DNA of 64,000 bases from IMG/VR virus record IMGVR_UViG_2721755711_000002. The stretch is one strand, 5' to 3'. The translations under genes were made by a program, and so were the position numbers. The notes beneath the pieces are model-generated. The model saw only the letters and a list, made by a program, of their open reading frames with translations. It was not told the origin of the DNA and made no database searches. This document shows positions 15,731 to 26,191 of the stretch, piece by piece. Numbering within the stretch: the first letter of the stretch is position 1; every line of letters begins with the position of its first letter. This stretch comes from a virus. Its lineage: Duplodnaviria > Heunggongvirae > Uroviricota > Caudoviricetes.

Positions 15731-16036
15731 TCAGAAGCGGGAAAGAGAATCCGGCGTAATAAGAGGTTTATTACAAAGCGGAGCAGAGGCGTTCGCCTTT
15801 TCCATCGCTGCGCGCATCTCGTTTTCGCTGGCGATGATGTCAGCAATGGCACACTGCAACGCTTCTTCCTGAACAACCATATCCGGTTGTTCGGCCATTC
15901 GGTTTAACTGACTGGCCAAATTTTTCATATAAGCAAAGCGACGTCCGGCAGCATCCCGGGCCTGCTCTGAGTAGGCCGTATACTCGCCAAGTGCCATATA
16001 GTTGGTCATAAGTGTCTCCTTTTTTCTGAGGCCCAT
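15731..16036 (-). CDS. hypothetical phage protein
   Basis: 101 aa ORF between Mor/C-like gene and membrane protein genes. Confidence 0.3.
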   Translation of the reverse strand: MGLRKKETLMTNYMALGEYTAYSEQARDAAGRRFAYMKNLASQLNRMAEQPDMVVQEEALQCAIADIIASENEMRAAMEKANASAPLCNKPLITPDSLSRF

Positions 16037-16503
16037 TAATCAAAAAGCCCCACCTGAGTGGGGCTTTTCAGCGAAGTCTGTTTTTGTCGTCGGTGTATCA
16101 GCTGCCATGCGTACCGGTCTGAAATGCCGTAACGGGGACAGAGCAGTGCCAGCGCCTGCCGGTGTGAGCATCCGTCTTTTACATGCTGCTGTAAATCAGC
16201 CATAAAACGGGTGTTACGCAGGGCACGTAATGCATGATCGCAACGGGGAATGTAAAACGGAGCACCGCCAAGAAAGCGGATCAGTTTGTTGATTTCGTCT
16301 TCGGTCAGCACATCATGTAACAGGGCATGGACACCGCCGGTTCGTTCGGCGTGTGCGCCGGTTTTACCGCTTAACGTCACGCCACCAAAAGAACGGATTA
16401 ACCGGGTCAGGGCGGGGAAGCCAATCACGCTAATCAGTTGCTGCACGGAATCAGGCAACAGTGCCTGCGCATCGCGAAGATCTGTTTCACTGAAGGTCTG
16501 CAT
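16036..16503 (-). CDS. Mor/C-family transcriptional activator of phage middle/late genes
   Basis: 155 aa; C-terminal ...FYIPR... RYGISDRYAWQLI... resembles the Mor/C helix-turn-helix region; located before the lysis cassette as in Mu. Confidence 0.7.
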   Translation of the reverse strand: MQTFSETDLRDAQALLPDSVQQLISVIGFPALTRLIRSFGGVTLSGKTGAHAERTGGVHALLHDVLTEDEINKLIRFLGGAPFYIPRCDHALRALRNTRFMADLQQHVKDGCSHRQALALLCPRYGISDRYAWQLIHRRQKQTSLKSPTQVGLFD

Positions 16504-16598: not shown

Positions 16599-17012
16599 TT
16601 ATTGTTTACGTGCTGCTCTGGCTCGTTTTCTGGCGTCTTTTGTCAGCGCCACCATCACCCCGAACAGTTGATCATCTGTCAGCCATTCGATCACATGTTG
16701 CTTATACATGTGAGATGCCAGTCCTTCCGCATACGCCCAGGAACGACCGGCATCAGCCAGCAACGCTTCAATTTTGGATAATACTGATTTTCTGCTCATT
16801 GCAACACGGGGGCGGCGACCTTTACCGGCGGGTGCCTTGCGCGGAAATCCCTGTTCGTGCATGTATTCCCGGATGATGCGCAGTTCATCAAGATTGCAAC
16901 GTGTGGTGCTGGTTTTACCTGTCAGGCGGGCCAGTGTCTGGCGATAAAGGGCATCATCCCACCCCAGATACGCCTGACCGGCTTTAATGGCCCCGATCAT
17001 CTTTTTCAGCAT
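16599..17012 (-). CDS. GemA-like protein (Mu gp16-like)
   Basis: ORF with start proposed at MLKKMIGAIKAGQ; located just upstream of Mor/C-like gene as gemA is in Mu. Confidence 0.5.
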   Translation of the reverse strand: MLKKMIGAIKAGQAYLGWDDALYRQTLARLTGKTSTTRCNLDELRIIREYMHEQGFPRKAPAGKGRRPRVAMSRKSVLSKIEALLADAGRSWAYAEGLASHMYKQHVIEWLTDDQLFGVMVALTKDARKRARAARKQ

Positions 17013-17516: not shown

Positions 17517-17825
17517 TTATTCTCCTGAAATCAGTCCTGAACGGATTACTGTTTTTGCAATATGCGCCCGTAATTGCTGCGTTCCGTGGTATTTGATTGC
17601 CACATCGCGTAATTTATTAACCAGCTCCCTGAGCTGATGCTCTTTTGCTCCCGGTGTCACCGGAATGATTCCTGCTCTCCGGTATTCCTGAAGCTCCAGC
17701 AGGGACTGCCGTAAGAGCGTCCACCACTCTCTGTCTACAATCGGCCCGCGCATATCAAGCATTTTGTCAGCATCGGCAATCAGTCTGGTCAGGCCCTTAT
17801 CGCTTATTCTGGTTTGCTGGTTCAC
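17517..17825 (-). CDS. hypothetical Mu-like early protein
   Basis: 102 aa ORF in a tight overlapping array of small genes. Confidence 0.3.
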   Translation of the reverse strand: MNQQTRISDKGLTRLIADADKMLDMRGPIVDREWWTLLRQSLLELQEYRRAGIIPVTPGAKEHQLRELVNKLRDVAIKYHGTQQLRAHIAKTVIRSGLISGE

Positions 17826-18112
17826 TGCGCCGCCTCCTGTTCATTTTTTTCACTCCGGTATACCAAAATCACGACATCACCTACGGGGATAACGCGGGTT
17901 GGTTCTCCCGGCTCTATGCTGTCGATATCGAAGGCCTCAAAGAACTCATTCATCGCCTTCTGCTGCTGCGTCTGTTTACGGTGCTTATTCCATGTTTTCA
18001 GGAATACAAGGGACAGCCACATCCCGGCGCGGAGCATGATGTAACACCAACCGAGAAGAGCGATGCCTGCATTCATGGCTACATCTATCGTTATCGTTTT
18101 ATCAATGACCAT
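17822..18112 (-). CDS. hypothetical small membrane protein
   Basis: 96 aa ORF with one long hydrophobic segment; start overlaps the neighbouring gene. Confidence 0.3.
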   Translation of the reverse strand: MVIDKTITIDVAMNAGIALLGWCYIMLRAGMWLSLVFLKTWNKHRKQTQQQKAMNEFFEAFDIDSIEPGEPTRVIPVGDVVILVYRSEKNEQEAAQ

Positions 18113-18558: not shown

Positions 18559-19269
18559 TTACACCCTCCCCAGTGCCAGCGGTCTGTTGCTCTGACCATT
18601 AACCCCCTGATGCAGTCTGGCGTTTTTCCCGGCGATAAAACCGGCTGTAGCGGCAAACTCTGCACCCCGGCACGCTTTAGCTGTGCGCATATCCCCGTTG
18701 CGCAGCCCCTTAGTGCTGTGCAGGTTCTTTCTGTAAAGCTCAAGGCGGCTTTTTTCTTCCGGGGAGACGTCATACACCGCAATGACATCACGGGCACCAA
18801 AGACCCAGCCTTCGCAGAACTGGTCGCCACGGGCTACCCGCGTGGACGGACCACAACGTTTGCAGTGTTTATCCTGATATTTTTTACGTTCAGCCATCAT
18901 CTGACGGGAAAGCACATCAAACGCGTATGCCGCAATTTCCGGGCGGCTGTCAGGACCATAAAAACGAACGTAACGTTTGAGTGAACCAGAAGCCCGGTAT
19001 TCGCCGGATATGTAACACTCGACACCGAAGGCTTTACAGACCAGGTCACACAGGATGTGCATATAACGCGGCGGTGTACTGGCATCACTCGGCGCACCCG
19101 CGCTGGCAGCTTCCTGAATGTCGAACAATTCCGCGTCGTTTTCGCTGATGCCATGCTGGCGCATATAAGCCTGGGCTTTTGCAATAGCGTTAGCGGCTTC
19201 TTCCGGGCTTGATGTTCCTCTGGCAAGGCGTAACAGTTTTTTGATTTTGGCAATGTATTTATCTTTCAT
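18559..19269 (-). CDS. Mu-like early protein (DUF2786-like)
   Basis: 236 aa; N-terminal KIKKLLRLARGTSSPEEAANAIAKAQAYMRQHGI motif. Confidence 0.45.
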   Translation of the reverse strand: MKDKYIAKIKKLLRLARGTSSPEEAANAIAKAQAYMRQHGISENDAELFDIQEAASAGAPSDASTPPRYMHILCDLVCKAFGVECYISGEYRASGSLKRYVRFYGPDSRPEIAAYAFDVLSRQMMAERKKYQDKHCKRCGPSTRVARGDQFCEGWVFGARDVIAVYDVSPEEKSRLELYRKNLHSTKGLRNGDMRTAKACRGAEFAATAGFIAGKNARLHQGVNGQSNRPLALGRV

Positions 19270-19480
19270 GGTCGTCTGAACCTCAGCATCCTGAATTCTG
19301 AATTACGCAACTTCCGGCACGGCCTTCAGGAACGTGGGGAGTTCGTTCTGGCTGCGGTACTGAATGAACATCTGCTGTCGATTGAGAACTGGTCGCAAGA
19401 CGATTAAAACAAACGATTGTCAGATTAATTTCGCGGGCGAACTTTTTTTGCTTAGCGATATTCATAAATAAACTCTCTCT

Positions 19481-19516
19481 GATTCAGGCGTAAGCCAGCC
19501 CCGGCGGGTTTACGCC
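19481..19516 (-). repeat. conserved hairpin motif, copy 1 (hairpin then CGCCTGAAT then SD then start codon on minus strand)
   Basis: GATTCAGGCGTAAGCCAGCCCCGGCGGGTTTACGCC; near-identical to copy 3 and related to copy 2; about 20 nt upstream of the start of ORF 19283..19465. Confidence 0.6.
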
Positions 19517-19545
19517 ATATACAAATAAAATTAAAAACAGACTTA

Positions 19546-20091
19546 TTAACTACGACGTTCAGTTTTCCGGTAATGGCGGTCAACAGATTTAACGAACGCC
19601 TTCACATCACGGGAAATCGAATCCAGCGGATAATATTTATCCAGCAGTTCCATTCCGCTGAATCGAATCTGAAAAAAATCAGGCTTATCTTTATATGACT
19701 CCATCAGGTCAATAAACCGCAGCTGACGCGGGAGGGATTCCTGCACGCCTGAAATAGTGAGCAAATCATCTTCAAGGATATATGCGAGGTCTTCCATATC
19801 CTTACAGTCAGACATCATGGATATTCTTGTCAGTATGTTCCGTGTGGCGATATACAGCGCGGCTGTGTCATTCGCCATCATGGCGAACAAATCCCCCTGA
19901 ATATAAGCCCCCTTACTGGCCATAGCATTCCCGGCAATCTGCGCATCAAGTACCACATACATAAAATCGCCAGGTGCACCCAGATGGCCCAGCAATGATG
20001 ACGCCCATAACGTTACATTGGTTAACTTCCCAGATGAACGGACAGCAAAACCTTCAGGAGTAACAATAAATTCCCAGACTTTATCTTTCAT
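19546..20091 (-). CDS. hypothetical accessory protein
   Basis: 181 aa from ATG 20091 (SD AAGGGGA); preceded by hairpin motif copy 2; no recognisable catalytic motif. Confidence 0.45.
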   Translation of the reverse strand: MKDKVWEFIVTPEGFAVRSSGKLTNVTLWASSLLGHLGAPGDFMYVVLDAQIAGNAMASKGAYIQGDLFAMMANDTAALYIATRNILTRISMMSDCKDMEDLAYILEDDLLTISGVQESLPRQLRFIDLMESYKDKPDFFQIRFSGMELLDKYYPLDSISRDVKAFVKSVDRHYRKTERRS

Positions 20092-20105
20092 ATACAAATC
20101 CCCTT

Positions 20106-20135
20106 AATTCAGGCGCAGACCTGTTTACCTGCGCC
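20106..20135 (-). repeat. conserved hairpin motif, copy 2
   Basis: AATTCAGGCGCAGACCTGTTTACCTGCGCC; 7 bp stem GGCGCAG/CTGCGCC, followed on the minus strand by TGAAT, SD and ATG of gene 19546..20091. Confidence 0.55.
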
Positions 20136-20155
20136 ATAAAAAAACGAAGTCAGAG

Positions 20156-20548
20156 TTAAAAATCGAAGACGTCAGTTAATTCCCGCTTCAGTGAAACGCA
20201 CTCAGAATAAAAGCCCTCGCTCTCACCGCACCATCTGACGACTACACAGCCTTTTGATGTGCCGAACTTAAAGAAACTCCATGTCTGATGACCTTCCCCA
20301 ACATCACATTCTTCGGTAACCACTTCAGCCTCTGTCAGCGGTTCATCTTTCAGGTCGTCAAGGTCTCCGACGATGTCCTCAATCCAGACTTTTTCGCAGC
20401 CTTCCTGAAAGTGGAAAAATGTAAACACGGTTCCCCATACTCCCCGGGAATAATCACCACGAAAAACAAGTTCATCGTTTTCATTCTTAACTACTTCTTT
20501 AAATGTACGCCCGAGCATTTCATTGATAACGGTAACACTCATTTTCAT
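20156..20548 (-). CDS. hypothetical Cys-rich accessory protein
   Basis: 130 aa; preceded by hairpin motif copy 3 and GGAG SD. Confidence 0.45.
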   Translation of the reverse strand: MKMSVTVINEMLGRTFKEVVKNENDELVFRGDYSRGVWGTVFTFFHFQEGCEKVWIEDIVGDLDDLKDEPLTEAEVVTEECDVGEGHQTWSFFKFGTSKGCVVVRWCGESEGFYSECVSLKRELTDVFDF

Positions 20549-20555
20549 TTCTCCA

Positions 20556-20593
20556 GATTCAGGCGTAAGTCAGCCCCGGCTGGTTTACGCCTG
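20556..20593 (-). repeat. conserved hairpin motif, copy 3
   Basis: GATTCAGGCGTAAGTCAGCCCCGGCTGGTTTACGCCTG; 9 bp outer stem with inner GC-rich stem; followed on the plus strand by a T-run. Confidence 0.6.
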
Positions 20594-20622
20594 TTTTAAA
20601 TAACAATTAAAAACAAATTAAA

Positions 20623-20814
20623 TTAATGCGGTGCTTTCAGTGTTTCGACTTTTACGAAATAAGGCTCGACATTAATTTCAACCACACAACCACATTTAAA
20701 ATCTCTGGCAGGTGAAACGGTTTTCACCACACGACCACCACGCAACGCCGGATGTGCAGTGTGCATGAAGCGAGTCCCTACCGGATACTGCTTATTAAAG
20801 TTCTTCGCATTCAT
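20623..20814 (-). CDS. hypothetical small protein
   Basis: 63 aa ORF followed on the minus strand by hairpin motif copy 3. Confidence 0.3.
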   Translation of the reverse strand: MNAKNFNKQYPVGTRFMHTAHPALRGGRVVKTVSPARDFKCGCVVEINVEPYFVKVETLKAPH

Positions 20815-21028
20815 GGCGTGGCCTCCAGCCCTTCAGGTGAGCGTTAGCGCAGAACTCCGCACGATGTTCAGCCCAGATGCGGCGCAGGGTGCTACACGGG
20901 CTTTGTGCTGCCTTACGCCACAGCTTTTCAGCCTCGGCATAATCACCGCGCTGTTCAGCTCTTGACGCTCCCAGTGAATACGCCGCGCAACGGTTCCCGG
21001 CTCTGTACTCTTTGATATCCTGATGCAT
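20795..21028 (-). CDS. hypothetical small protein
   Basis: About 77 aa from ATG 21028, 1 nt after the stop of the upstream gene. Confidence 0.3.
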   Translation of the reverse strand: MHQDIKEYRAGNRCAAYSLGASRAEQRGDYAEAEKLWRKAAQSPCSTLRRIWAEHRAEFCANAHLKGWRPRHECEEL

Positions 21029-21029
21029 G

Positions 21030-21674
21030 TTAAACCCCTGCAATATCAAGCGGGATTGCGCGATATTCGTCAGAATCGCCGACGCGCTCATACACACGAA
21101 TATAGCTCTTGCTGCCAATCACCTGGACGGCTTCACCAATCAGCGTCATTGCGTTATTCCAGCGTTCGTCCTCAATTTCAAGGCGACGCAAGGCCAGAAC
21201 GCGCCCGGTGTTAATGTTGCCTTCCTTGTCCGTGCTGAATGCCTCGCTGATGATGGCTTTGATTTCAGGGCGTGCACCTTCCGTCCAGTCAGCCAGGCAA
21301 TCATCAATCAGCGACTTCGCGGTCTGAATGCGTTCATCAAACGCGATACGGTCCTGCATGGCGCGCTGAATCTTGTAACGCCCGTCAAAGCTGTAAAGCG
21401 TGATATTGCCTTTTTTGCCACCTTTCACTGCGCCGTATTTCTCCGCCGACAGGTCAATAAACGCCTGAATATCACCAAAGGCACGTAGTTTCAGTTCACG
21501 CAGTGAGGCGGAGGCAGCAATCACCAGTTCCACAATCTCACCGACCAGCTGCTCGCGGTCGCGGTCAATATCTTTGATAAGGCTTTCAGGTGTCATTACG
21601 CCACGGGCATCCACCCAGTAACCTTCAGGCGCTTGAGTTTTCGTGTATTGCTTAACTTTATTTTCAGTCGTCAT
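21030..21674 (-). CDS. Mu-like early protein (DUF3164-like)
   Basis: 214 aa ORF in the semi-essential early region downstream of B. Confidence 0.5.
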   Translation of the reverse strand: MTTENKVKQYTKTQAPEGYWVDARGVMTPESLIKDIDRDREQLVGEIVELVIAASASLRELKLRAFGDIQAFIDLSAEKYGAVKGGKKGNITLYSFDGRYKIQRAMQDRIAFDERIQTAKSLIDDCLADWTEGARPEIKAIISEAFSTDKEGNINTGRVLALRRLEIEDERWNNAMTLIGEAVQVIGSKSYIRVYERVGDSDEYRAIPLDIAGV

Positions 21675-21703: not shown

Positions 21704-21919
21704 TTAATTTGTGTTATGTGCGCGAGGCGCAACGTTTTCAGAAAAAATATTCACGCCGTTGTAGTCATTTCTCAGTGCTTCCTTGATAACATCATGTAAT
21801 CCTGTTGCCACCTGAAGCTCCCTTTTGGAAGCGCCATCCTTCGAATAACTCCCTGTAATCCGGGTAAAAGTCGCGCCTTTTTCATTGGTATAGATAATTA
21901 CTTCTAATTTAACCGCCAT
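21704..21919 (-). CDS. hypothetical small early protein
   Basis: 71 aa ORF with plausible spacing to neighbours. Confidence 0.3.
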   Translation of the reverse strand: MAVKLEVIIYTNEKGATFTRITGSYSKDGASKRELQVATGLHDVIKEALRNDYNGVNIFSENVAPRAHNTN

Positions 21920-21931
21920 TCTGATTTCCTC

Positions 21932-22171
21932 TCATTGCCATACGACGGTGCAGCCGTCGATACAGGATGTTTTCACCACGCGGCGCAGGCCGCTGAATGT
22001 CTGGATGATTTCCGTTACCGGCCATACAGGACCACCCACAGGCGGGCAGGCATAAACCACAGGTAAACGGTGATGTTGCCCCGTTACACGACCGCCGGTG
22101 GTGTGGATGGCCACACGGGCACGGGAACGGACGGCATTAATGGTCTGCTTTTCCATCATTTTGTTCTCCAT
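21932..22171 (-). CDS. hypothetical small early protein (Kil-position)
   Basis: 79 aa ORF immediately downstream of the B-like gene, where Mu carries kil. Confidence 0.3.
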   Translation of the reverse strand: MENKMMEKQTINAVRSRARVAIHTTGGRVTGQHHRLPVVYACPPVGGPVWPVTEIIQTFSGLRRVVKTSCIDGCTVVWQ

Positions 22172-23064
22172 CAGTGAATTAACATTTCTGAATATTTATC
22201 AATGGCCTGCACACTGACCGGTGCATCGCTGATATCACAAATCCGGTACACACCACGCGCCAGCTTGAACAGACGACGGGCATTACCCAGCGAACGTGTG
22301 TAAAGTGCCTCACCAATTTCCGGGTCCGCCGCTTCCGGCATCATGTCTGTGGCAATCTTGTTAAAATCTTCCTGCGTCAGCGTATCGCCCAGGTTAAGCG
22401 CCAGCGCCACGCGGCTGTATAATTGAGCGAACTCACCACAACGGCCCTTAAGGTTAATCAGAAGGTGAGGCATACCCGCCAGGACAATCCCGATACCCGC
22501 TTTGTCATGCAGACGGCGCAATACCTCCAGTGCACGATAGGGGAGCAGTTCAGCCTCATCCACCATCAGCAGACGACCTGACCCACGCAGTTCACGCACA
22601 CAGGCATCAATCTTCTCGCGAATATCGCCGTGAACCTTTATGCCCAACTGGCGGCACAGTTCATCGAGTAACTTTCTGGCCGTATAGCCAATATCGGCTT
22701 CAATGAGCACTACATCCCGGTTTCTGGCGGCATATTCACTCAGAATCATGCTTTTACCCAGGCCCGCCGCGCCATACAGAACGCAAATATCACACTCCAG
22801 ATGGGCGTAGGTCAGTACTTCCAGCCCTTTGGCAGCCATGCCGGTGGTGACAAATCGCACTTTAATACGGCGGTTGTTTTCCTTTTCCCATTCACGGGTC
22901 ACAAAGGCAGAAATGCGTTCTTCAATATCAGCCATATCGCCCTGATATTTGCCCTGCAAATACTGGTTGATAACAGCGCTGCTACGACCAATAGCACGGG
23001 CAACGTGGGTCTGCGTAAAGCCGCGACGGGCCATTACGTCATTTAATTGCGTAATTAAACTCAT
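22171..23064 (-). CDS. Mu B-like transposition target-capture ATPase (AAA+)
   Basis: 297 aa; N-terminal HTH-like segment followed by Walker A LYGAAGLGKS; directly downstream of the MuA-like gene. Confidence 0.8.
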   Translation of the reverse strand: MSLITQLNDVMARRGFTQTHVARAIGRSSAVINQYLQGKYQGDMADIEERISAFVTREWEKENNRRIKVRFVTTGMAAKGLEVLTYAHLECDICVLYGAAGLGKSMILSEYAARNRDVVLIEADIGYTARKLLDELCRQLGIKVHGDIREKIDACVRELRGSGRLLMVDEAELLPYRALEVLRRLHDKAGIGIVLAGMPHLLINLKGRCGEFAQLYSRVALALNLGDTLTQEDFNKIATDMMPEAADPEIGEALYTRSLGNARRLFKLARGVYRICDISDAPVSVQAIDKYSEMLIH

Positions 23065-23082: not shown

Positions 23083-25125
23083 TTAACGATTATTTGTGCC
23101 GTTTTTCTTTAAATTGCGCTCACGGTCAGACACGAATAAATAAAGTTCTTCTTTTTCCTTTTTCTCCTGGCGTTCCAGTCCATATCCCAGATTAAACTCA
23201 GGTTTCTGCGTAATAGCCGGGGTAAGTTCGCGTTTAGCCTCTTCGATTTTCTGCGTGGCCCGTGCAATGCGGCCTCGGGCGCGTTTCTCCTGCTGCTGTT
23301 CGATAACGGCTTTCGGGAACGCATCGACCTTGTTACCGTTCCAGATGGCATCGCAGATATAAGAACCGTCCATTCGCCTGACAATCACGCTGTTTGCGTC
23401 GTGAATGTCGTAACAAACCCTGACTTCATTTCCGTGCTCTGCTGCCAGTTCTGTGGAGAAATAGATGTTTCTGAATAACACCACTTCACCGCGTCGCACC
23501 GTGCAGATGCTTTCCGGTCGGAACATTTCATGCAGTTCTTCCGGCGACAGCATGTCGATTTCAGCCTTTTGCTCTTTTATCAGTTTCCGGCGATACGCTG
23601 CCGGGCTGTAATGTTCGCCATCCTCTTTGCGGGGAAGGCTGCTGTGTGGTCGGTTGTTATACCGTTTCACCTCCAGCTCTATTGCGGCCAGCAGTTGCTC
23701 AAAGGTGGGGACTTCTCCCATCGCTTTAACCTGCCGTTTTGTCAGCTCTTTCCCTTTGTGGGTGGCCTTAATGGCTGACTGTGTGATGCGTTGCTGCATC
23801 ATCACCGTTTCCTTGTCTGCATTTTTTGAGCAGTACGTCTGGAAACTCAGGGCCACATCTTTGGGTATTCCTTTGTTTGCCCGTTCTATTACCCCGCGCC
23901 CCTGCGGGTTACCAGGTATCCCCGTGTGATGCTCCACACCCAGTCGGGGCAGAATCCCGGTAATATCGGCATCAAGCACCCGGTTTTTTTCACCGCCCCC
24001 GTTATCGGAGTAATAAATCAGCGGTATTCCGTGTTGTGACATGCCATGACGCAATGCATCAGCAACGGCTATCACGTTCTCCGACAGGGACAGCGACCAG
24101 CCCACAATAAAGCGTTGCCCCGCATCCATAACCAGCGTCACTTCTGGCCGGAATGTATTCCCGGTGGCGGGGCTGAATGCCATCAGTTTCATACAGTGAC
24201 CATCCCCGACCCATACCGCATTAACCGGTAATGTGCTCCAGTCGCGCCGCACAAAGGGATTGAGCGAACGCCAGGCTGAACCGGTGGAGCGGAAACGCTC
24301 CTTCACAATCACCGGGACGTTGCTTAACACCCGTCTTACTGCGTGAACTGAAGGCAGTGCTGCCAGCATTCCTGCGTCATTCGCGTGCTTTTCATGCCAC
24401 CAGGCTGAAAACTCGCGATACGCATATTCAACGGTCGGGCGCTTCCATGAGCGATAGAACATAAAGAAATCGCTCAACCACCAGACCTGCTCCCACGGTG
24501 TTCCCTTATGATGACCGGGAGCCAGTAACGCCAGTAACTGATTGGCATCACCGCGCGCCATCAACCAGGCGGAATACCATTCCTGCAAACTTCCCCAACT
24601 GACGCCAGTTCGCTTACCCTGTCTGGCGTTTGCAGTGCCTGCGGCCTCAATAATGCGGTCAGGTAACGCCCCCATGCGCACACCATCAATGATGTGTTTT
24701 ACTGCTGCCGTCCTGGACATTCCTGCGTATTCACGCAGTTTATGCACTTCGGTAGCCAGCAATATCCGCGCATCAGCGATGGCCTTTTGCTTGTCGGTCA
24801 GTGCCTGAACTTCGCGTAATGCCAGTTCCGGGCATTTGACCATCACTTCCAGTTCATCGCGAACGGTGACGTTTTTAACTGCCTTCTGCTCAACCACGGC
24901 GGGCAGTTGCGCATCTTCCAGAACCTGATGAGTCAGGCGCTTACGTAAAACTTTCTGCGCTTCAGTGGGCAGGCAGTCGATGTGATACTCGAATGCTTTG
25001 GTGCCTTCACGCTTGCGCTTCCATTCCGGGTGCGTCTCTGTGATCCGATTGAGCGTCCAGCGCACCCCCTGAACTGTACCGGGCAAACCAGGAAGACCGG
25101 CCAGCTCATTGGCTGAATAAAACAT
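23083..25125 (-). CDS. Mu-type DDE transposase (MuA-like)
   Basis: 680 aa ORF between ner-like and B-like genes; size and organisation as Mu A. Confidence 0.8.
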   Translation of the reverse strand: MFYSANELAGLPGLPGTVQGVRWTLNRITETHPEWKRKREGTKAFEYHIDCLPTEAQKVLRKRLTHQVLEDAQLPAVVEQKAVKNVTVRDELEVMVKCPELALREVQALTDKQKAIADARILLATEVHKLREYAGMSRTAAVKHIIDGVRMGALPDRIIEAAGTANARQGKRTGVSWGSLQEWYSAWLMARGDANQLLALLAPGHHKGTPWEQVWWLSDFFMFYRSWKRPTVEYAYREFSAWWHEKHANDAGMLAALPSVHAVRRVLSNVPVIVKERFRSTGSAWRSLNPFVRRDWSTLPVNAVWVGDGHCMKLMAFSPATGNTFRPEVTLVMDAGQRFIVGWSLSLSENVIAVADALRHGMSQHGIPLIYYSDNGGGEKNRVLDADITGILPRLGVEHHTGIPGNPQGRGVIERANKGIPKDVALSFQTYCSKNADKETVMMQQRITQSAIKATHKGKELTKRQVKAMGEVPTFEQLLAAIELEVKRYNNRPHSSLPRKEDGEHYSPAAYRRKLIKEQKAEIDMLSPEELHEMFRPESICTVRRGEVVLFRNIYFSTELAAEHGNEVRVCYDIHDANSVIVRRMDGSYICDAIWNGNKVDAFPKAVIEQQQEKRARGRIARATQKIEEAKRELTPAITQKPEFNLGYGLERQEKKEKEELYLFVSDRERNLKKNGTNNR

Positions 25126-25361
25126 TACGCCGCCTTACTGGCATACCGGCTTGGCCAGATCTCCGCAGGTTCCACACCAATAGCATCGGCTATGATGCGT
25201 TCATATTTAGGGCATGAGCGATACAGTGCATTTTTTAAAGAGTCTTTTTTTAGACCAGCGCGTTCAGAAAGTTCACGCAATGTAAAACCTTTGGTGTGCA
25301 CAGCGGCAACGATGTACTCGCGGTGCCAGTCTTTGTTCATTACTTCATTTCTAACCATCAT
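25125..25361 (-). CDS. ner: Ner-like DNA-binding regulator
   Basis: About 78 aa from internal ATG; C-terminal ...IADAIGVEPAEIWPSRY... closely resembles remembered Mu Ner (...ANALETKPEVIWPSRY...). Confidence 0.7.
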   Translation of the reverse strand: MMVRNEVMNKDWHREYIVAAVHTKGFTLRELSERAGLKKDSLKNALYRSCPKYERIIADAIGVEPAEIWPSRYASKAA

Positions 25362-25543
25362 TAGGTTACCCTTAAAAGTTATCCGTGCGGATAACACCGC
25401 CGTGTTATCCCTTCGGATATAAGTATTGATCCATATGTAACCCATGTAAAGCAAAAATAGCCTTTTCTTTGTATTTTCTTTTTGCTTTTGGTCTTTATAT
25501 GGTTTTGTGATTGAAAATCAATTGGTTAAATAGGAAAGGAAAA
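25362..25543. promoter_or_regulatory. divergent early/repressor promoter-operator region
   Basis: AT-rich intergenic region between divergently transcribed ner-like and repressor genes, analogous to the Mu Pe/Pc operator region; no motif-level assignment made. Confidence 0.4.
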
Positions 25544-26191
25544 ATGACAAAAAATGATGACGCTTTTTCTTTAGTTGACCGAGGAAAAGAAAGTTTTAGA
25601 GAGCGTTTAGTAAAACTAATAGGTGGGCGCAGTGTCAGAACTGCCGCGAGCGACTGGGGTATCCCTCCTTCAACCTTAAACAACTACATCCATAAAGGAA
25701 CAGAACCCTCTTTTAAAATAGCCTGCCTTATCTCAGATAAAGAGCGGGTGAGTTTAAATTGGCTCGCTTATGGTGAGGAACTCACCGCCACAGCAAACTC
25801 TTTATCAAACCAAACAGCGCAGCCTTCTCCCGATATTACAAACGAGCTAGCTAACGAGTTATTGAAAAGAGCGTCCACAGAAGATAAAGAACTATTGATA
25901 AATGCAATATGTGATATGGGTATCAAAGGAATCCTAAAACGTCTGCAACAACCCACTAGGCAAGCGAAACAAGCCGCTAACACGCTGGAGGAGCAAGAGA
26001 ATGCTATCCAAAGTCTGAATATCAGGAAATCACTTAAGGATGCAATCCGAGTAGCATTACATGGAAACGAAGATACTGACAGAGAGATTTTGCGAATTGT
26101 TGAATCTCATATACGACCACAATCGCCGGGTGATCAGACCGATGTCACACCGGAGCAAGAAACAAAATCTGTAAGTAAAAAATCAGCATGA
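25544..26191 (+). CDS. prophage repressor (HTH, XRE/CI-like)
   Basis: 215 aa from ATG 25544 (SD AGGAAAGGAAAA); N-terminal HTH-like segment (...RTAASDWGIPPSTLNNYIHKG...VSLNWLAYGE); divergent from ner-like gene. Confidence 0.55.
   Translation: MTKNDDAFSLVDRGKESFRERLVKLIGGRSVRTAASDWGIPPSTLNNYIHKGTEPSFKIACLISDKERVSLNWLAYGEELTATANSLSNQTAQPSPDITNELANELLKRASTEDKELLINAICDMGIKGILKRLQQPTRQAKQAANTLEEQENAIQSLNIRKSLKDAIRVALHGNEDTDREILRIVESHIRPQSPGDQTDVTPEQETKSVSKKSA

Follow-up and report, generated by a model that had tools for sequence, protein, structure and literature searches.

Background

The hyperplastic regions of T4-type phages contain promoter-early stem-loop (PeSL) cassettes (Arbiol et al. 2010, PMC2839356; Comeau et al. 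2014, PMC4122927), and PeSL-mediated gain and loss of cassettes has been shown experimentally (PMC2839356). In phage Mu, the semi-essential early region is part of a single long Pe transcript and is largely uncharacterised (PMC3820752). The present work concerns a stretch of 64,000 nt of viral DNA (IMG/VR record IMGVR_UViG_2721755711_000002, Caudoviricetes; hereafter the window), in which the early operon of a Mu-like prophage carries a repeated hairpin and four small genes: o63 (63 amino acids, aa), a gene of the DUF7448 family, o181 (181 aa) and o60 (60 aa). The first three of these open reading frames (ORFs) had previously been flagged as a cluster of accessory genes bounded by the hairpin (the original prediction). 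Comparison with related loci reveals that the DUF7448 gene, o181 and o60 are independent promoterless cassettes, each consisting of a Shine-Dalgarno site, the ORF, an AT-rich tail, a stem-loop and TGAAT, and each placed right after the previous hairpin. The hairpin-marked slot that holds them is kept from this prophage to Mu itself; it is described here as new, and as a variant of the stem-loop-linked shuffling of T4-type phages.

The hairpin units resemble PeSL in their organisation, as both are repeated intergenic motifs in which a stop codon in an AT-rich stretch is followed by a stem-loop, a Shine-Dalgarno site and a start codon. In each case, the genes that come after the motif are small orphans, the region is the one that varies most within the genome, and the junctions of indels or replacements between close relatives fall in the motif (here, a hybrid junction in locus L002 and the combinatorial content of the slot). 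However, PeSL carries a sigma-70 consensus early promoter (PMC2839356), while none was found at any copy here, and a terminator U-tract is also lacking in the units, unlike in PeSL. There are about 50 PeSL copies over a genome, compared to one to three hairpin copies in one slot, and the units are found in a temperate, transposable phage whose early genes form one long operon. Unlike PeSL, the founding hairpin copy is kept in both sequence and structure across genera and in Mu.

Other described elements are less similar. REP/BIME sequences are extragenic palindromes which stabilise upstream mRNA and are dispersed in hundreds of copies over enterobacterial chromosomes. Like them, the hairpin is a stable, GC-rich, intergenic stem-loop without a U-tract within an operon, and stabilisation of this sort is the action proposed for it, but its sequence is unrelated and it is confined to one prophage family: the 63-nt unit is present in 58 of 5,426 E. 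coli genomes, with one to four copies each, all within this family. A dispersed REP-like repeat was therefore rejected. The cassettes of integrons are, like those of the slot, promoterless ORFs with an imperfect palindrome at the 3' end, in one orientation behind a shared promoter and in variable combinations. An integron however has IntI and attI, neither of which was found here, MuA and MuB being the only recombination proteins (among the ORFs at 13-26.5 kb of the window and in the RefSeq annotation of locus L001). The core sites of attC follow the consensus RYYYAAC ... GTTRRRY, which does not match the palindrome ends observed here (GGCG...CGCC), and some insertions at the hairpin site come without a second hairpin, unlike integron cassettes. 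The integron reading was rejected for want of an integrase and of attC core sites. Finally, the morons of lambdoid phages (Hendrix and colleagues) carry their own promoter and terminator and are typically expressed from the prophage. The DUF7448 gene, o181 and o60, though not o63, are like morons in being extra genes between backbone genes in some relatives only, but neither a promoter nor a terminator of this kind was found at them, and they are embedded in a repressed early operon. The original prediction had listed the flagged genes as candidate morons, which does not hold in the strict sense, as no sigma-70-like promoter was found at any hairpin and no U-tract comes after one on the sense strand; they look like promoterless cistrons of the early operon.

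Organisation of the hairpin units

On the sense strand (minus strand of the window), each unit reads stop codon, AT-rich stretch, stem-loop, TGAAT, Shine-Dalgarno site and ATG. Unit 1 (20557-20622) occupies the space between the o63 stop codon and the Shine-Dalgarno site of the DUF7448 gene (20156-20542), and is composed of an AT-rich stretch (20592-20622), a stem-loop (20562-20591) and TGAAT (20557-20561). Its stem-loop has a folding energy of -14.8 kcal/mol alone and of -22.7 kcal/mol with its flanks (z -3.65). Unit 2 (hp2, 20107-20135) precedes o181 (19546-20091) and has a 24-nt stem-loop (20112-20135; GGCGCAGG-UAAACAGG-UCUGCGCC) followed by TGAAT. It has the same GGCG...CGCC-TGAAT ends as the 30-nt copies with a different interior, folds at -12.8 kcal/mol and obtains a marginal covariance-model score. 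Unit 3 (19482-19545) lies between the o181 stop codon and the Shine-Dalgarno site of o60 (19283-19465), and its stem-loop (19487-19516) has the canonical form which is found after o63 in most related loci. The stem-loops of units 1 and 3 are near-identical over 30 nt, with no chance match in 100 shuffles, and score 45.2 bits (E 1e-8) and 47.5 bits (E 3e-9), respectively, with the covariance model. The repeated hairpin of the original prediction is thus a real element.

No further significant copy was found with the covariance model over the 64-kb window, and Rfam scans of the hairpin gave no relevant family with E values up to 1. At 44695-44715 (minus strand), an A-rich stretch precedes an unrelated, short GC hairpin (GGCGGCCTGAACCGCC) with TGAAT behind it, which fits a loose text pattern but not the covariance model. 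In viral contigs, all exact matches to the hairpin pattern are in Mu-like early regions. Pairing of the AT-rich leader with the Shine-Dalgarno region into a lower stem was seen when single sequences were folded, and was dropped because two of the three copies did not reach significance (z -1.9 and -0.9). CsrA-type sites have GGA in the loop; such a site was rejected here, as GGA is in the loop in Mu only and GGG is found in the others.

The sense strand has no U-tract after any of the hairpins, TGAAT and the Shine-Dalgarno site being found there instead, and the element is therefore not an intrinsic terminator on this strand. A consensus scan, which weak or non-sigma-70 promoters may escape, gave no sigma-70-like site in the three intergenic stretches (19466-19545, 20092-20155 and 20549-20622), and a single such site was found in 4.5 kb compared to 5.3 in shuffles.

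Cassette content of the slot in related loci

The comparative set consisted of 20 loci from an exact-pattern scan of viral contigs and three E. coli loci, onto which the window proteins were mapped, and the state of the slot was recorded over 24 related loci. The backbone is constant and reads DUF3164 (or Gam), ANR, o63 and hairpin on one side and DUF2786 on the other, with variable content in between. The slot is empty in four loci (L008, L010, L014 and L017), where the DUF2786 gene comes directly after the hairpin, and a DUF2786-type gene also starts after the hairpin in L012, at which point the contig ends. o60 is the only cassette in L006, L007, L018, L021 and L022, and the DUF7448 gene the only one in L013 and L019. 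o181 and o60 are found together in L002, L009, L016 and L023, the DUF7448 gene and o181 in L003, and all three in the window, L001, L004 and L015. In addition, a 125-aa Cys-containing gene is present alone in L005 and together with the DUF7448 gene in L011, while L020 has o181 with a different 121-aa gene. The three cassettes are found in nearly all combinations and are for this reason independent units, gained and lost one at a time among relatives.

Every cassette has its own leader with a Shine-Dalgarno site and its own hairpin on the 3' side. hp2 is always found after the closely related DUF7448 cassettes, which are at least 73% identical (L001, L003, L004, L013 and L015), with a compensated and longer stem in L013. 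After the DUF7448 variants with 58-66% identity (L011, L019 and L040) there is another hairpin or none. The junctions left by cassette loss fall inside the hairpin/TGAAT. In L002, which has no DUF7448 gene, a single hybrid junction combines the upstream flank of hairpin 1 with the downstream leader of hairpin 2, which places the breakpoint within this element.

Some recombination junctions also seem to fall just inside the coding start. The 121-aa gene of L020 (3392-3757, oriented), which follows a second hairpin, shares its leader and its first six codons (MKDKVW) with o181 and then diverges fully, and the DUF2786 protein of the window begins with MKDK as well. In L007, about 180 bp between o60 and DUF2786 (~1914-2094, oriented) contain a small reverse ORF (MIDDEIAAAITANKAAW...) with its own Shine-Dalgarno site, which may be a truly independently transcribed insert.

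Conservation of the hairpin in other genera and in Mu

All 31 related loci with o63 have the hairpin after this gene. Seven loci, from Kluyvera, Buttiauxella, Trabulsiella, Intestinirhabdus, Edwardsiella and Pantoea (two), were retrieved by the o63 protein alone, and this set is therefore unbiased regarding the hairpin; it is present in all seven, 30-45 nt after o63. In three of them the 30 nt are identical even though the o63 proteins are only 62-75% identical, and the next gene differs among loci. The hairpin is also found in phages VW-6B and ST405-OXA48phi1.1 and in one Klebsiella prophage, where the slot once more holds a DUF7448 gene (58% identity). A 59-aa zinc-ribbon protein with four Cys is found in the slot in Buttiauxella, Trabulsiella and Intestinirhabdus (L028 4273-4452, L029 4264-4443 and L030 4275-4454). 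Its score against the Lar restriction-alleviation family (PF14354) is 20.5 bits, below the cutoff of 28.6, which is a weak hint from sequence that the slot may host anti-restriction genes.

Covariation was evaluated with a set of nine distinct 30-mers. The hairpin has 12 base pairs, with 90.7% of the cells paired, and five of the 12 pairs change on both sides. The covariation score was 0.289, compared to 0.128 in shuffles (none of 500 reached 0.289) and to at most 0.065 in controls with a slid register, while the variants have free energies between -12 and -21 kcal/mol. Structural selection acts on the hairpin, which is a landmark of ancient origin in the early operons of Mu-type phages.

In phage Mu (NC_000929; L034 6368-6397), the hairpin is located between gam and gp11 and reads GGCGCGATACGTCAGGAGATTGCTCGCGCC-TGAAAC, with two stem pairs compensated relative to the form of the E. 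coli prophages. This position corresponds to that in the window, since the lineages in which Gam replaces DUF3164 read Gam, ANR, o63 and hairpin. In SfMu (L037 868-897) and Yersinia phage vB_YpM_3 (L038 868-897), the hairpin is directly followed by an extra gene of about 184 aa, labelled DUF5420 in the SfMu record, so that the true Mu lineage, too, has a hotspot at this site. A relationship between o181 and the SfMu slot protein was rejected, as profile comparison gave none. No description of the element was found in the literature on Mu early-region hairpins.

The backbone gene o63 and its ANR neighbour

The flagged ORFs are all on the minus strand, at 19546-20091 (181 aa from ATG), 20156-20548 (130 aa) and 20623-20814 (63 aa), as had been proposed. 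Substitutions are mostly at third codon positions and the dN/dS ratios are below 1 (0.33 for o181, 0.18 for the DUF7448 gene and 0.14 for o63, compared to 0.07-0.09 for backbone genes), on which account the three look like real coding genes under purifying selection. Not all of them are of the same kind. The original prediction had described each as accessory and as bounded by the hairpin, which applies to the 130-aa and 181-aa genes, both variable among close relatives, and not to o63, which is conserved in Mu-like prophages of Enterobacterales. o63 is never absent from the related loci, overlaps the ANR gene by 20 nt on its 5' side and has a hairpin on its 3' side only. It is therefore placed in the backbone, as a conserved gene of the Mu-like lineage and not a cassette. 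The count of three was also incomplete, as the hairpin-preceded o60 had been overlooked.

The o63 protein is basic (pI 9.8), and GGAGG is located 7 nt ahead of the ATG of its gene. It matches phrog_5591 (E 3.5e-40), and beyond this family match no function could be assigned from sequence searches. Homologues are found in E. coli, Citrobacter, Salmonella, Yersinia, Serratia and Edwardsiella, as well as in phages VW-6B and ST405-OXA48phi1.1 (two Klebsiella phages and VW-6B being counted).

The overlapping gene (20795-21028, minus, 77 aa) is found in all related loci and codes for a small regulator of the ANR (AraC negative regulator) family, with 56.9 bits against NCBIfam NF033650 ANR_neg_reg (cutoff 32) and the RefSeq name "ANR family transcriptional regulator". 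ANR proteins antagonise AraC-type virulence regulators and H-NS, and host regulation could be influenced where E. coli, Shiga-toxin-producing strains included, carry a copy on a phage.

Proteins encoded by the cassettes

The DUF7448 gene most likely starts at its third codon (20542), giving 128 aa rather than 130, because the distance from GGAG is only 2 nt to the first ATG but 8 nt to the second, and because the homologues and the RefSeq protein begin with MSVTV. The protein is acidic (charge -14 and pI 4.4 for the 130-aa form). The original prediction had seen no recognisable motif in any of the three proteins; the profile search found one in this case, as residues 10-119 match Pfam DUF7448 (PF24240) with 57.4 bits against a cutoff of 27. 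Its description as Cys-rich is weak, with five Cys in 130 aa of which one is invariant among homologues. The invariant polar residues are H46, C51, E52, E57, D65, K94, R105, E109, S110, Y114, S115 and E116.

DUF7448 is a virus-wide family, with 158 phage records retrieved by a translated search, among them Bacillus Herelleviridae, T5-like phages and Pseudomonas, Acinetobacter and Ralstonia jumbo phages. The structure of the protein is predicted with confidence as beta-rich (pLDDT 84, pTM 0.81), and the best matches of this model in a BFVD fold search were other DUF7448 proteins; the family was also found by this search in giant viruses of eukaryotes. No significant match to the PDB was obtained with Foldseek, a profile search against PDB sequences found nothing, and no paper on "DUF7448" was found in the literature. 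In Bacillus Herelleviridae (BigBertha, L026 2465-2992), the gene is flanked by those of ribonucleotide reductase, alpha on one side and beta on the other. It is beside dUTPase, ThyX and DNA methylase genes in a metagenomic phage (L041 3001-3369), and in T5-like phages a gene for a ribonucleotide reductase subunit is found at a distance of about 2.5 kb. Nucleotide-metabolism genes are a recurrent setting for the family.

o181 is an optional cassette of Mu-like prophages and an orphan found only in Escherichia. It matches phrog_7741 only, and searches against Pfam, NCBIfam, PADLOC and PDB sequences found nothing, as did a translated search of phages. A word-indexed search gave 21 clusters, all of E. 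coli origin and with an identity of 83% or more among those of full length, and a cluster look-up also lists E. albertii. An exhaustive HMMER scan of 1.84 billion representatives returned the protein itself and a fragment as the only two real matches, along with two weak multi-stretch ones (P0023 and P0024). Its AlphaFold2 model, built from a shallow alignment (at least 83% identity), reached a pLDDT of 50 and was excluded from the fold search as unreliable.

o60 is probably a fourth small gene and the third optional cassette. It stays open at constant length in 10 distinct sequences, with a Shine-Dalgarno site 7-9 nt upstream, is labelled as a hypothetical protein in many genomes, and is missing from L003, L010, L012 and L013. 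Its coding signal is weak (dN/dS 0.42, with 5/5/8 variable sites by codon position).

No PADLOC-DB family was found at E values up to 1 for the three flagged ORFs, the ANR-family protein or o60, and o63, DUF7448 and o181 had no match in NCBIfam or among PDB sequences. Homology to Mu semi-essential proteins, on the absence of which the original prediction depended, was looked for by BLASTP of o63, DUF7448, o181 and o60 against the Mu early proteins (gp5-gp14, GemA and Mor), and no match was found (best E 0.07 or worse).

Proposed role of the slot and of the hairpin

Taken together, the region is probably a variable, hairpin-marked cassette slot in the long early operon of a Mu-like prophage, in which cassettes are gained and lost singly and the hairpin and cassettes have the roles that follow. 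The cassettes would be transcribed from the early promoter Pe only on induction or infection, and any function, be it in host takeover, anti-defence or support of replication, would consequently belong to the lytic phase rather than to lysogenic conversion. Their position suggests an anti-defence or host-takeover role. In the early mRNA, the hairpin would act as a processing signal or as a barrier to 3' exonucleases at an AU-rich site, parting the conserved left segment from the variable one and giving each cassette a stable end. Since it is repeated, it would also supply short homology for the insertion and excision of cassettes, like the stem-loops of PeSL. The DUF7448 protein would most plausibly be a small acidic binding or inhibitor protein, possibly directed against a nuclease.

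Several observations weigh against parts of this picture. On the antisense strand, hairpin 1 with the TGTTTT behind it obtains a terminator score, although only this copy (20560-20593) qualifies, and folding of the sense strand is not energetically favoured over the antisense strand (eight of 16 variants each way), which makes a DNA-level or antisense role possible. The genes inserted in SfMu, vB_YpM_3 and several other genera are not accompanied by a second hairpin, so that duplication of the hairpin is not general at insertions. As for DUF7448, its presence in giant viruses and beside nucleotide-metabolism genes in lytic phages, together with its many invariant polar residues, fits a conserved biochemical role better than a fast-evolving inhibitor.

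Alternatively, DUF7448 could serve as an accessory factor in nucleotide or DNA metabolism and not as an inhibitor of a host protein. The gene neighbourhoods in Bacillus Herelleviridae, T5-like phages and the metagenomic phage agree with it, as do the many invariant polar residues and the occurrence in giant viruses, but the protein matches no known enzyme fold, proximity is weak evidence given that such neighbourhoods also collect small early genes, and no nucleotide-metabolism genes are near it in the Mu-like prophages; such a role is considered unlikely, though with a real chance of being correct. A comparison with toxin immunity proteins bears on the idea that DUF7448 and o181 form a functional pair, either an immunity-like protein with its effector, a toxin-antitoxin or a defence module, in line with the small system which the original prediction had thought the region might hold. 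In the window, L001, L003, L004 and L015, the two genes are neighbours with the same orientation, and the predicted fold of DUF7448 may resemble that of a toxin immunity protein, PIM7 (immunity protein of the LXG DNase toxin PT7; PDB 8owu_E; bioRxiv 10.1101/2021.10.19.465003). However, the sequence identity to PIM7 is 13% with no profile-level link, the Foldseek search of the PDB gave DUF7448 no significant match, and DUF7448 is, unlike PIM7, virus-wide. Immunity proteins like PIM7 sit beside their cognate toxin, whereas the neighbours of DUF7448 are o63, o181 and elsewhere DUF2786, with no toxin domain detected. o181 is found without DUF7448 in L002, L009, L016, L020 and L023, and DUF7448 without o181 in L011, L013, L019 and L040; the former is confined to Escherichia while the latter spreads across unrelated phages and giant viruses, and neither matches a PADLOC model. 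The independent occurrence of the two genes largely refutes the pair, which is extremely improbable.

The hairpins themselves could instead be recombination sites in the DNA, recognised as a folded single strand with insertion right after CGCC-TGAAT, in a structure-directed capture like that of integron attC, IS200/IS605 or REP/RAYT. The cassettes are indeed promoterless and co-oriented, each ends in an imperfect palindrome whose structure is kept better than its sequence (hp2 compared to the canonical form), insertions start exactly after the 9-nt CGCCTGAAT and finish with the same 9 nt, the site is reused in distant lineages including Mu-type phages, and folding shows no strand preference. 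Against this, neither a tyrosine nor a HUH recombinase is encoded in the early region, where the DDE transposase MuA is the only recombinase found, and the hairpin ends, read directly from the sequence, are unlike the attC core sites. Outside the E. coli group TGAAT is not kept, the stem being followed by AAATTT, AAAATC or CAAAAT, several insertions have no second hairpin, and ordinary homologous exchange via the flanking backbone genes would explain most combinations, all of which leaves recombination sites an improbable explanation. Transcription stops, by antisense termination or sense attenuation, with each cassette an insulated, moron-like unit, are about as doubtful. In their favour, hairpin 1 is followed on the plus (antisense) strand by TGTTTTAAAT, the top terminator-like site of the scan, the reverse-oriented gene gp15 downstream in Mu could yield antisense RNA, and the stem-loops of T4-type PeSL work as terminators or attenuators (PMC2839356). 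On the other hand, the sense strand has no U-tract after any hairpin, the four antisense Ts are found only at the copy following o63 in the E. coli group (ATATAC, ATATTT or ATAATT elsewhere), no promoter-like motif is present at any copy, and the same transcript must reach the essential downstream genes GemA and Mor. A bolder proposal, that the conserved stem-loop after gam/o63 anchors an integrase-free, structure-directed cassette-capture site of Mu-type phages, with promoterless modules of ORF and hairpin moving as small circles like integron cassettes or the mini-circles of PeSL (formed by recombination of neighbouring motifs) and DUF7448 as a widely travelling module which blocks a host nuclease, is judged quite improbable. 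The cassette slot with an RNA-level hairpin remains the preferred explanation.

Prophage context

The early operon of the Mu-like prophage is on the minus strand (ORF listing with Pfam, PHROGs and NCBIfam matches), and the flagged ORFs lie between its MuA/MuB/kil/DUF3164 side and its GemA/Mor side, in agreement with their original assignment to the Mu-like early semi-essential region. A repressor gene (25511-26191, plus) is followed on the minus strand by a ner-like gene (25125-25454), MuA (23083-25125), MuB (22171-23064), a kil-like gene (21932-22171), a 71-aa gene (21704-21919) and the DUF3164 gene (21030-21674), after which come the ANR gene and o63. The DUF2786/DUF7168 gene (18559-19269, minus; Pfam PF23771 and PF10979) belongs to the backbone and forms the downstream border of the slot, beyond which are, also on the minus strand, a DUF4752 gene (17822-18112), GemA (16599-17009) and Mor (16036-16503). 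A Gam-family protein (PF07352) is found in related prophages (L005 4382-4912 and L033 3261-3785) and in Mu where the window has DUF3164, and since they occupy the same position the two may be functionally interchangeable early proteins.

The DNA of the cluster is present at 90-97% identity in 57 of 5,426 complete E. coli genomes, where RefSeq labels its products as hypothetical except for the "DUF7448 domain-containing protein", and the whole cluster, used as a nucleotide query, had no match in the phage collection. The GC skew of the window flips sharply at ~26-27 kb and again at ~49 kb, with ~27000-49000 (+) set against 1-26000 (-), and the GC content falls to 0.38-0.47 at 50-55 kb. The window therefore holds further blocks of distinct composition besides the Mu-like prophage.

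Conclusions

If the hairpin is a signal for mRNA stability only and the cassettes are ordinary accessory genes, the present results would amount to a modest contribution to comparative genomics. One conserved, structured hairpin marks where Mu-type phages, from Escherichia to Pantoea, exchange small early genes, and thereby gives a precise locus to mine for host-takeover and anti-defence genes. The copy between gam and gp11 in phage Mu is directly mutable, which makes the element testable in a tractable model. Stem-loop-linked shuffling, described in the lytic T4-type phages, is suggested to act in transposable temperate phages too.

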